Assembly (NCBI RefSeq): GCF_003018115.1
Contig: NZ_CP027457.1
Length of the DNA: 64,000 nucleotides
Strand: one strand, 5' to 3'
Source of the DNA: Escherichia coli
GTDB lineage: Bacteria > Pseudomonadota > Gammaproteobacteria > Enterobacterales > Enterobacteriaceae
Shown here piece after piece: positions 19,240 to 21,300 of this stretch; position 1 is the first letter of the stretch; each line of letters begins with the position of its first letter. Position numbers and translations under genes: made by a program. A model generated the notes under the pieces. The model did no database searches. It worked only from the letters and a program-made list of their open reading frames with translations, and was not told where the DNA came from.

Positions 19240-19420
19240 TAAAATGCTTAGCCCTGGTGACTGCTCCCCGCCCTGTCGGGCGAGGCTTCCCACTTCTTAA
19301 GCTGCAACCGTCTGTGTGACGGATTTACGCTGGCCTCCATGGGCAGAAACGACGAGTCCCGCCGCTTGTAATTCCAGTATGCCCTTGCGTTTGATGTTGA
19401 GCGCCGCGTTGATATCGCGG
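19240..19420 (-). ncRNA. Putative TnpB-associated omega RNA (reRNA) at tnpB 3-prime end and IS right end
   Basis: Inferred from the architecture of IS200/IS605 TnpB systems; subterminal hairpin ccccgccc-tgtc-gggcgagg at 19266-19285, 12 nt past the tnpB stop; exact boundaries not determinable by eye. Confidence 0.3.
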
Positions 19421-20466
19421 TCATGTTCAACTCCACACTCTGGACACTGCCAGATGCGCTTATGTAATGGCATCTCCGACATTTTGTGACCGCAGCAGTG
19501 GCAGATTTTCGAACTGGCGAACCATTGATCCAGTTTCACCAGATGCACACCTTTCTCTGTTGCTTTGTATTCCAGTTTTGTGATGAATCCAGACCATCCA
19601 GCATCGCCTATCGCACGAGCCAGATGGTGATTTTTCATCATATTTGCCGTTTTCAATGTCTCGACAATTACCGCTTGGTTTTCGTCAACAATTGCGCGAG
19701 ATAACTTGTGCTGGAAATCGGCACGGGCACTGGCTACCCGTTCGTGAACGGCTGCAAGTTGTATTCTGGCTTTGCGCCTGTTTGCGCTCCCTTTTTTCTT
19801 ACGGGACAGTGCTTTCTGCTTCCGGCGAAGGTTGCGACTTGCATTGATTAGGTGGCGGGGACTGGCAATTTTATTGCCGTCCGATTTGATGACAAAATGC
19901 GCCAGCCCCATATCCAGCCCTGTCACATTTGATATCAGTGCGGGCTTTGCCGGCGCTTCCATCCCGTCGTCACAGAGTAACGACGCGTAGTATTTCCCGG
20001 TTGCGCTGCGGCTCAACGTGATACTTTTCAGCATTCCCGTAATTTCACGATGTAAACGCGCTTCAATCGGCAAGATTTTCGGTATTTTTATCGCACCATC
20101 AAGGACTTTTATGCCAACACAATGATAGCTCGATTGTCTGCCGTGTTTACTTTTAAAGGTAGGTTTACCTGCTTTCAGTTTCGGATTGAAAAAGTTAGAA
20201 AAAGCCACGTCGAGGTTAATTACCGCCTGCTGCAACGCAATAGAATCATATTCTTTAAGCCATCCATACCGGCGGGATTTCTTCGCCACTGCAAGCAGTG
20301 GTTTGAGGTCTTTACGCGGGTTTAAATTTACGCGGTGCCGCTGGTAAGAATGTTTCTTGATATGCAGAGCTTTGTTGTACGCAAAACGCACTGCACCGAA
20401 CTGGGCGTTGATAAATTCAGCCTGTTCTGGTGTCGGGTAGATGCGTACTTTTGTTGCTCTTAACAT
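19297..20466 (-). CDS. tnpB: TnpB (OrfB) RNA-guided endonuclease-like protein, RuvC-like with zinc finger
   Basis: 389-aa ORF; RuvC-I GLDMGL, RuvC-II VIVETLK, Zn finger CHCCGHK..CPECG, RuvC-III HDRDINAALNI. Confidence 0.9.
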   Translation of the reverse strand: MLRATKVRIYPTPEQAEFINAQFGAVRFAYNKALHIKKHSYQRHRVNLNPRKDLKPLLAVAKKSRRYGWLKEYDSIALQQAVINLDVAFSNFFNPKLKAGKPTFKSKHGRQSSYHCVGIKVLDGAIKIPKILPIEARLHREITGMLKSITLSRSATGKYYASLLCDDGMEAPAKPALISNVTGLDMGLAHFVIKSDGNKIASPRHLINASRNLRRKQKALSRKKKGSANRRKARIQLAAVHERVASARADFQHKLSRAIVDENQAVIVETLKTANMMKNHHLARAIGDAGWSGFITKLEYKATEKGVHLVKLDQWFASSKICHCCGHKMSEMPLHKRIWQCPECGVEHDRDINAALNIKRKGILELQAAGLVVSAHGGQRKSVTQTVAA

Positions 20467-20522
20467 AATCAGCGCTCATTGATATAATTCTTTTATTTTA
20501 ACGCTTTAGGTGAATATATCAA

Positions 20523-20948
20523 TTGAGTAATCATGATGATTTACTGGCGGGATTTCTCCGCAAACGACACAGTGTCAGTAAGCTGGTTGTGCACCTTATT
20601 TTTACGACAAAGTATCGACGCAAACTATTCGACAGTCAGATGATCGCTCAGTTGCGTGAGGCTTTTGGCTCCGCTGCGGCAAAGCTTGAATGCGAAATTA
20701 TTGAGATGGACGGGGAGCCAGACCATGTACACCTGCTGGTTGCCTACCCGCCAAAACTGGCGGTCAGTGTGATGGTCAATAATTTAAAATCGGTATCATC
20801 ACGTTTGCTACGCCAGCAGAACGCGCATTTACGTATGCAGAGTAAAACGGGGCTTTTGTGGTCGAGATCGTACTTTGTCTGTAGCACCGGAGGGGCAACG
20901 ATTGAAACGCTCAGAGCCTACGTTCAGAGTCAGTCAACACCTGATTGA
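20523..20948 (+). CDS. tnpA: IS200-type Y1 (HUH) transposase TnpA
   Basis: HUH motif HVHLL and catalytic Tyr region SYFVCSTGGA; annotated frame begins at TTG so true start uncertain; hairpin terminator at 20954-20973. Confidence 0.85.
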   Translation: MSNHDDLLAGFLRKRHSVSKLVVHLIFTTKYRRKLFDSQMIAQLREAFGSAAAKLECEIIEMDGEPDHVHLLVAYPPKLAVSVMVNNLKSVSSRLLRQQNAHLRMQSKTGLLWSRSYFVCSTGGATIETLRAYVQSQSTPD

Positions 20949-21018
20949 TCTTTAAAGCCCTGCGGGCTTTTCGCCTTATATCCCCGCCCGCATTGGGCGA
21001 GGGTTTACGGCGTTTTTC

Positions 21019-21300
21019 GCTAAAGGAATTGTTGTTAGACGAAGCCTTTTTCGCCTTTACCGGATCGATGCCAACCGAGATGTCTTTCCTCGCAGTCCAT
21101 GCCTTATCCCTTGCCTCCTGCAAAGTCATTAGCGGATATTTTCCTACGGTCAGGATTTTCTCCTTACCGTCAATCTTGTAGCGAAGCTGCCATACCTTTT
21201 TCCCTGACACAGGGACATAAAGGTACAGGCCATTACCATCGAGAAGGCGGTATGGTTTTTCTTTCGGCTTTGCTGCTTCAATCTGCTTAACGGTGAGCAT
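21019..21300 (-). pseudogene. intS: 5-prime fragment of P4-type (IntS-like) integrase truncated by the IS element
   Basis: ORF-track frame 20911..21336; N-terminal Arm-DNA-binding region MLTVKQIEAAKPKEKPYRLLDGNGLYLY..., homology lost after about codon 106 where IS sequence begins; lies beside argW. Confidence 0.8.

Follow-up and report, generated by a model that had tools for sequence, protein, structure and literature searches.

The window analysed here, a 64-kb stretch of Escherichia coli DNA, includes the argW tRNA island of this species, in which the gene order is cscA (minus strand), cscK, cscB, an insertion sequence, a 5' fragment of intS, a tRNA-Arg gene (minus strand), yfdC and mlaA (Table 1). 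The insertion sequence is a structurally complete copy of ISEc46 of 1763 bp, whose top (transposing) strand is the minus strand of the window and whose two genes, tnpA on the plus strand and tnpB on the minus strand, are divergent. A preliminary description had recognized an IS605-type element here, and this assignment holds, since the element belongs to the IS200/IS605 family and has the IS605-like divergent layout. The tnpA gene did not appear in that description. The name ISEc46 rests on the NCBI PGAP annotation of 100% identical loci, in which the two genes are labelled 'IS200/IS605-like element ISEc46 family transposase' and 'RNA-guided endonuclease InsQ/TnpB family protein'. In a megablast search of 5426 complete E. 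coli genomes, seven, O169:H41 strains among them, contained the full 1.9-kb region in 100% identical form, and the element alone, with an identity of at least 99%, was present in 455 (median of one copy per genome, maximum of five). The copies outside the seven identical loci, in about 450 more genomes, are 99.2–99.6% identical and carry the same annotation. Insertions are found at no fewer than five unrelated sites (cscB/intS, yfaX, oppD, ygbA-mutS and near yccA), and the presence of near-identical copies at at least five sites argues for recent activity of the family. ISEc46 is thus a known, annotated and ordinary insertion sequence, which behaves as the TnpB paradigm predicts; in the open literature, we found it almost exclusively as an entry in mobile-element inventories.

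Table 1. Features of the ISEc46 copy and of its immediate surroundings (positions in the 64-kb window).
Feature	Position	Strand	Remarks
cscB stop	19177
Predicted guide segment CAGGGCTAAGCATTTTACTA	19237-19256	minus	flank between the element and the cscB stop
ISEc46	19257-21019	minus (transposing strand)	1763 bp
Right end (RE)	19257-19296	minus	40 nt; hairpin CCTCGCCC-GACA-GGGCGGGG at 19285-19266
RE terminus ...TCAC	19260-19257	minus	last bases of the element
GAAG	19289-19286	minus	5' of the RE hairpin
Predicted omega-RNA scaffold	19257-19369	minus	113 nt; last 73 nt of tnpB plus the 40-nt RE; five helices
Invariant tail AGCAGUCAC	19265-19257	minus	terminates the scaffold
Helix 1	19367-19361/19353-19347	minus	RNAalifold, 41 relatives
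Helix 2	19343-19339/19293-19289	minus	RNAalifold, 41 relatives
Helix 3	19335-19329/19305-19300	minus	RNAalifold, 41 relatives
Helix 4	19322-19318/19312-19308	minus	RNAalifold, 41 relatives
Helix 5 (RE hairpin)	19285-19278/19273-19266	minus	RNAalifold, 41 relatives
tnpB	19297-20466	minus	389 aa; RuvC D185/E269/D351; zinc finger C322/C325 and C341/C344
Spacer	20467-20522	both	56 bp; divergent promoter-like sites for tnpA and tnpB
tnpA	20523-20948	plus	Y1 HUH transposase, 141 aa, TTG start; H68/H70 HUH, catalytic Y133, then Q137
Left end (LE)	20949-21019	minus	hairpin CCTCGCCC-AATGC-GGGCGGGG at 21002-20982; kept in relatives
AAAC	21006-21003	minus	5' of the LE hairpin; candidate internal partner of the TTAG cleavage site
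Target motif 5'-TTAG-3' (CTAA on plus)	21020-21023	minus	directly 5' of the left end, outside the element
intS 5' fragment	21020-21300	minus	LE flank with its TTAG; 98.8% identical to K-12 intS, including CTAA
tRNA-Arg	21465-21536	minus

The limits of the element were determined by comparison of four independent insertions, which share the sequence running from GTGACTGC (19257) to ...TTTTTCG (21019), with CTAA beyond, and by comparison with the corresponding vacant sites of K-12 at oppD (...GGGGTA/CTAA/AGGTGAC) and yfaX (...ATCAAGG/CTAA/GAAAACG). At these two sites, the element is inserted 3' of a 5'-TTAG-3' motif on the minus strand, and TTAG is present as a single copy, with zero target duplication. 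The vacant sites thus place the element at 19257-21019, correcting the extent of 19240-21020 previously proposed. Nine relatives belonging to other genera (Photorhabdus, Cedecea, Alteromonas, Vibrio, Shewanella and Idiomarina) likewise have TTAG next to the left end.

Instead of terminal inverted repeats, the ends of ISEc46 carry imperfect subterminal hairpins in the same orientation. The 64-kb window contains exactly two matches to the hairpin motif CCCCGCCC-N(3-7)-GGGCGAGG, one at 19266-19285 and the other at 20982-21002; they lie on the plus strand and have no equivalent in shuffled sequence, in agreement with the same-orientation hairpins that had been pointed out near both ends. On the plus strand the hairpin contains a C·A mismatch, which on the minus strand (CCUCGCCC/GGGCGGGG) becomes a G·U wobble, indicating that the minus strand is the relevant one. 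A distance of 16 nt separates the LE hairpin from the TTAG cleavage site, and one of 9 nt the RE hairpin from the end of the element (...AGCAGTCAC), a placement that corresponds to the geometry expected of ends recognized by TnpA. In IS608, the internal tetranucleotides and the cleavage sites follow the pattern AAAG/TTAC and GAAT/TCAA; by analogy, AAAC in the LE and GAAG in the RE of ISEc46 may match the cleavage sites TTAG and TCAC, respectively. The hairpins were also considered as transcription terminators, which is ruled out: no T-run follows them on either strand and no terminator is called there.

The protein encoded by tnpB contains the three RuvC motifs GLDMGL (D185), VIVETLK (E269) and HDRDINAALNI (D351), together with the cysteine pairs CHCC (322-325) and CPEC (341-344), so that the 389-residue protein with three RuvC motifs and a zinc finger of the preliminary description is recovered with an intact open reading frame. 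Residues 4-380 of TnpB can be aligned with the ISDra2 TnpB of known structure, at an identity of about 38% (E = 1e-74; E = 1.3e-74 for PDB 8bf8). D185, E269 and D351 lie opposite D191, E278 and D361 of the ISDra2 protein and both CxxC pairs are conserved; the alignment reveals neither a frameshift nor a substitution of the D-E-D residues. The NCBIfam model guided_TnpB scores TnpB at 340.9 bits (cut-off 100), and close homologues match the Pfam families PF12323, PF01385 and PF07282, corresponding to the OrfB_IS605 RuvC domain and zinc ribbon. These similarities support the prediction that TnpB is a full-length RNA-guided nuclease with intact catalytic residues. Domesticated, nuclease-dead RNA-guided regulators derived from TnpB (TldR-like proteins) are known in enterobacteria (PMC10705468), which brings such a regulator into consideration here. 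The sequence effectively refutes this possibility, since the protein retains its three RuvC residues and zinc finger, the gene lies inside a complete transposon with tnpA, LE and RE, and insertions occur at many positions in genomes rather than at a single fixed locus.

TnpA is confidently related to the IS608 TnpA (PDB 2a6m; E = 3.5e-20), with its HUH motif and catalytic Tyr aligned (DHVHLL and RAYVQSQ opposite DHIHIL and KQYIENQ), and scores 141 bits with the NCBIfam model transpos_IS200 (cut-off 55). The protein is identical to the widespread WP_000064874.1. The ISEc46 Y1 transposase has been described as N-terminally truncated (PMC9956272), which we read as the result of an ORF call limited to ATG starts. 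In all relatives examined, across genera, tnpA has TTG or GTG at the codon used as start here and the residues that follow it are conserved, indicating that TnpA is complete and has a conserved weak start. The short spacer between the two genes contains promoter-like sites for both of them, TTAACA-17-TATAAT for tnpA on the plus strand (11/12 consensus positions) and TTGATA-16-TAAAAT for tnpB on the minus strand (10/12); these are consensus matches and not proof of function.

We looked for a guide-RNA scaffold at the 3' end of tnpB in relatives of the element. A scan of one genome per species yielded 80 loci encoding TnpB proteins 63–99% identical to that of ISEc46. All their 3' regions finish in the same element end (...GAGCAGTCAC), which is conserved across about 70 relatives, with unrelated DNA past it. 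In an alignment of 41 distinct relative sequences, RNAalifold predicted the five helices of Table 1, comprising 35 pairs, 17 of which exhibit compensatory changes; 97.7% of the pair cells are paired, and double changes affect 162 cells, against 44±5 in shuffled alignments and 13-33 when the partners are slid. Several of the pairs are predominantly G·U, and helix 2 links coding bases of tnpB to bases past its stop codon, two features which indicate that the structure belongs to an RNA in the sense of tnpB and goes beyond what single-stranded DNA or coding constraint would explain. The predicted structure of an omega RNA over the tnpB 3' end and the RE, already suspected in the preliminary description, is thus borne out by covariation. 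A candidate pseudoknot between the loop GACU (19358-19355) and the tail AGUC (19262-19259) is 96% paired and near-invariant, with four uncompensated changes; a further long-range helix proposed by RNAalifold (19416-19414/19261-19259) is invariant and uninformative on covariation.

The covariance model R1, built from the 113-nt scaffold, matches the window only once, at 19369-19257 (119 bits). Outside the window, R1 recognizes the 3' end of tnpB in two plasmid-borne elements of Deinococcus, with scores of 33 bits (E = 1.8e-5) and 28 bits (E = 1.7e-4); both are relatives of ISDra2, with TnpB about 82% identical to ISDra2 TnpB. Judged by these matches, the predicted scaffold and the corresponding region of ISDra2-like elements are structural homologues. 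A scan of positions 18000-22500 against Rfam (E <= 1) detected the tRNA-Arg alone and no omega-RNA family. It could be argued that the structure at the tnpB 3' end serves solely as single-stranded DNA for TnpA or as a terminator, without being a guide-RNA scaffold, given that the outermost hairpin (19285-19266) is duplicated at the LE, as a TnpA site would be. The LE has nothing equivalent to the four additional covarying helices, which reach about 70 nt into tnpB, and the many G·U pairs would correspond, in DNA, to mismatches (G·T, or C·A on the opposite strand). The absence of a T-run and of a called terminator, described above for the hairpins, speaks against the terminator version, and the same architecture is present at ISDra2-like tnpB 3' ends, which in ISDra2 correspond to an RNA bound by TnpB (PMC8612924). 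We consider this explanation very improbable, and the preferred reading of the structure is a guide-RNA scaffold.

In ISDra2, the RNA of about 150 nt bound by TnpB comes from the tnpB 3' region, and its last ~16 nt are derived from the flank (PMC8612924). Applying this guide length to the position of the RE end of ISEc46, and reading from 19256 downward, gives CAGGGCTAAGCATTTT(ACTA), of which the ~16 nt CAGGGCTAAGCATTTT form the predicted guide. The suggestion that the guide is drawn from DNA adjoining cscB agrees with this position, tnpB being on the minus strand. On the model of its family, TnpA would bind both subterminal hairpins on the minus strand, excise this strand as a circle and reinsert it 3' of a TTAG motif without duplicating the target. 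The tnpB transcript, if expressed and processed as expected, would run on into the flank and yield an omega RNA composed of the five-helix scaffold and the guide of about 16 nt. By extension from ISDra2 and related work, TnpB loaded with this RNA would cut DNA reading TTAG followed by the guide, TTAG being the putative TnpB TAM, as deduced from the TnpA target; our literature search found no report linking TnpB to a TTAG TAM. The cut site would correspond to the donor joint left by excision of the element, and repair from the sister copy would restore the element. Even at the present locus, the predicted excision joint ...AATTCCTTTAG/CAGGGCTAAGC... (TTAG/CAGGGC...) would be the target of the guide itself.

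The two flanks of this copy derive from two different sites. On the LE side, the fragment of intS, a prophage integrase gene, is labelled by PGAP as an incomplete 'Arm DNA-binding domain-containing protein', and in K-12 the rest of intS precedes the sequence of this flank. On the RE side, the flank goes on in IS-free csc strains as ...CCCTG/CTAA/TAATCG, a DUF4942 remnant. This vacant csc-proximal site is present in about 1640 of the 5426 complete E. coli genomes; the bases matching the guide vary in some of them, with L088, for instance, mismatched at guide position 13. We found no perfect vacant site for the joined flanks of this locus, and the two junctions occur only together, in the same seven genomes. 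Since each flank has its own TTAG, one csc-proximal and the other in intS, a deletion after insertion is implied, and the simplest reading would be that two directly oriented ISEc46 copies recombined with loss of the intervening DNA. Tentatively, the locus may thus be a recombinant of a cscB-side and an intS TTAG insertion, with the DNA between them deleted and the guide now aimed at the vacant csc-proximal site TTAG-CAGGGCTAAGC..., a scenario that we regard as possible rather than probable. If TnpB is active, the element would be a natural homing or exclusion device against IS-free csc alleles. The hybrid flanks document an element-associated deletion at the argW island beside the sucrose genes.

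Compared with three other copies, this one has private changes at 19303, 19505 and 19828. The first converts a C-G pair of one scaffold helix into C·A, with a loss of about 2.9 kcal/mol in the consensus fold. The second produces the substitution T321I relative to the common ISEc46 TnpB, at a position adjoining the first zinc-binding cysteine. From the sequence, neither of these two changes looks disabling. The copy could nevertheless be intact in appearance and silent, a frozen passenger of its clone, if TnpA were truncated or poorly translated from its TTG codon, or if the C·A mismatch or T321I disabled the RNP. The two private changes and the energy lost in the fold would fit such a state, as would the restriction of the exact locus to seven genomes, the single ISEc46 copy in most genomes and the truncation call for the Y1 transposase (PMC9956272). 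This explanation is unlikely in view of the identity of TnpA with the widespread WP_000064874.1, of the conservation across genera of its TTG/GTG start and of the upstream residues, and of the Leu that ISDra2 has where I321 sits; one internal mismatch in a six-pair helix is mild, and the near-identical copies at several sites again point to recent activity of the family. [quoted passage not shown]

The significance of these observations beyond annotation is small, since the insertion sequence has a name and RefSeq already labels its TnpB as an RNA-guided endonuclease. The analysis adds the exact ends, the TTAG motif, a covariation-backed omega-RNA structure for the ISEc46 subfamily and the conserved non-ATG start of TnpA. 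Two of these details, the motif and the structure of the RNA, are new for ISEc46, and both are expected from the TnpB paradigm. The subfamily is widespread in Enterobacterales and other Gammaproteobacteria, and its predicted omega RNA is absent from Rfam. If our predictions are correct, the ISEc46 TnpB, at 389 aa, would be a compact nuclease that is native to E. coli and uses a short TAM of 4 nt (TTAG), and the details given here would permit testing of such a mesophilic TnpB in combination with a 4-nt TAM.

Compared with the ISEc46 reference annotation, the copy has no structural difference and is distinguished by its three private SNPs and by flanks coming from two target sites. Like ISDra2 of Deinococcus radiodurans (structures 8bf8, 8exa and 8h1j), for which a homing role of TnpB has been described (PMC8612924), ISEc46 encodes a TnpB with full-length homology, the D-E-D residues and the zinc finger, and its predicted RNA scaffold overlaps the tnpB 3' end and the RE, with a predicted guide derived from the flank. 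It differs from ISDra2 by the moderate identity of the two TnpB proteins (~38%), by its target (TTAG versus TTGAT) and by the orientation of tnpA, which is divergent here whereas it is co-directional and overlapping in ISDra2. The RE also finishes differently, with ...TCAC in ISEc46 and ...TCAA in the Deinococcus relatives. With IS608 of Helicobacter pylori, ISEc46 shares a Y1 HUH TnpA, imperfect subterminal hairpins carried by a single strand, insertion on the 3' side of a tetranucleotide that is not duplicated and, at both LE and RE, the geometry from hairpin to cleavage site; its target is TTAG instead of TTAC and the hairpin sequences are unrelated. Finally, the divergent arrangement of tnpA and tnpB is that of IS605, also from H. 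pylori.

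The flanks of the ISEc46 copy (19177-19256 and 21020-21300) derive from two distinct TTAG target sites: the right-end flank corresponds to the site proximal to the sucrose (csc) genes, which is vacant in ~1640 genomes, and the left-end flank is the 5′ part of the prophage integrase gene intS. Because both junctions occur together in seven genomes and neither was found without the other, these hybrid flanks suggest a recombination between two copies, with loss of a DUF4942 remnant and of the 3′ part of intS.

The outer 38 nt of the ISEc46 right end also occur on several E. coli plasmids, where these sequences are solitary, unannotated and located near hokD and insertion-sequence fragments; they look like orphan right-end remnants. 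A related element is present on E. coli plasmids as well, mostly in decayed form (frameshifted tnpB, truncated tnpA), and some of its copies adjoin shufflon recombinase or hicA genes. In relatives from Halomonas/Vreelandella, Idiomarina and Aliidiomarina, the loop of the right-end hairpin contains an additional nested hairpin (GUGGCGC...GCGCU). In most of the Photorhabdus loci (L011-L039), the region upstream of tnpB has neither a left-end hairpin nor tnpA where each would be expected from the spacing, so these copies are solo units of tnpB plus right end, present in many copies per genome.

Coordinates of features in the window, at related loci and in the alignment of relatives' tnpB 3′ regions (A1)
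Feature	Location	Other occurrences	Nucleotide identity
Outer 38 nt of right end	window 19257-19294		
38-nt right-end match (plasmid pHFQ1)	L092 1501-1538	hits H66-H70	100%
Related plasmid element	L093 1201-2708	hits H53-H65	~78-80%
Nested hairpin insertion	A1 columns 196-213	e.g. L067-L069, L074, L081-L087	
Perfect hairpin behind tnpA, within left end	window 20954-20970 (+)		
Hypothetical ORF	window 23774-25042 (-)		

Two metagenome-assembled genomes carry ISEc46-like contigs (entries L008 and L010), one assigned to 'Collinsella' (1960 bp, 99% identical) and one to 'Candidatus Paceibacterota' (88% identical); both contigs are probably mis-binned enterobacterial DNA. Elsewhere in the window, beyond mlaA, lies an AT-rich ORF of 422 aa with internal repeats (…NDTD.IT..IDI.NQEPIK…), labelled only as a hypothetical protein in RefSeq.

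The left end also contains a perfect hairpin (AAAGCCC-TGC-GGGCTTT), 6 nt beyond the stop codon of tnpA and followed by a T. It is probably the tnpA terminator; the terminator scan made no call at this hairpin. The Y1 transposase of ISEc46 has been called N-terminally truncated (PMC9956272). In contrast, the TTG or GTG start found family-wide at the tnpA codon at 20523 indicates that TnpA is complete and that its translation begins at a non-ATG codon.
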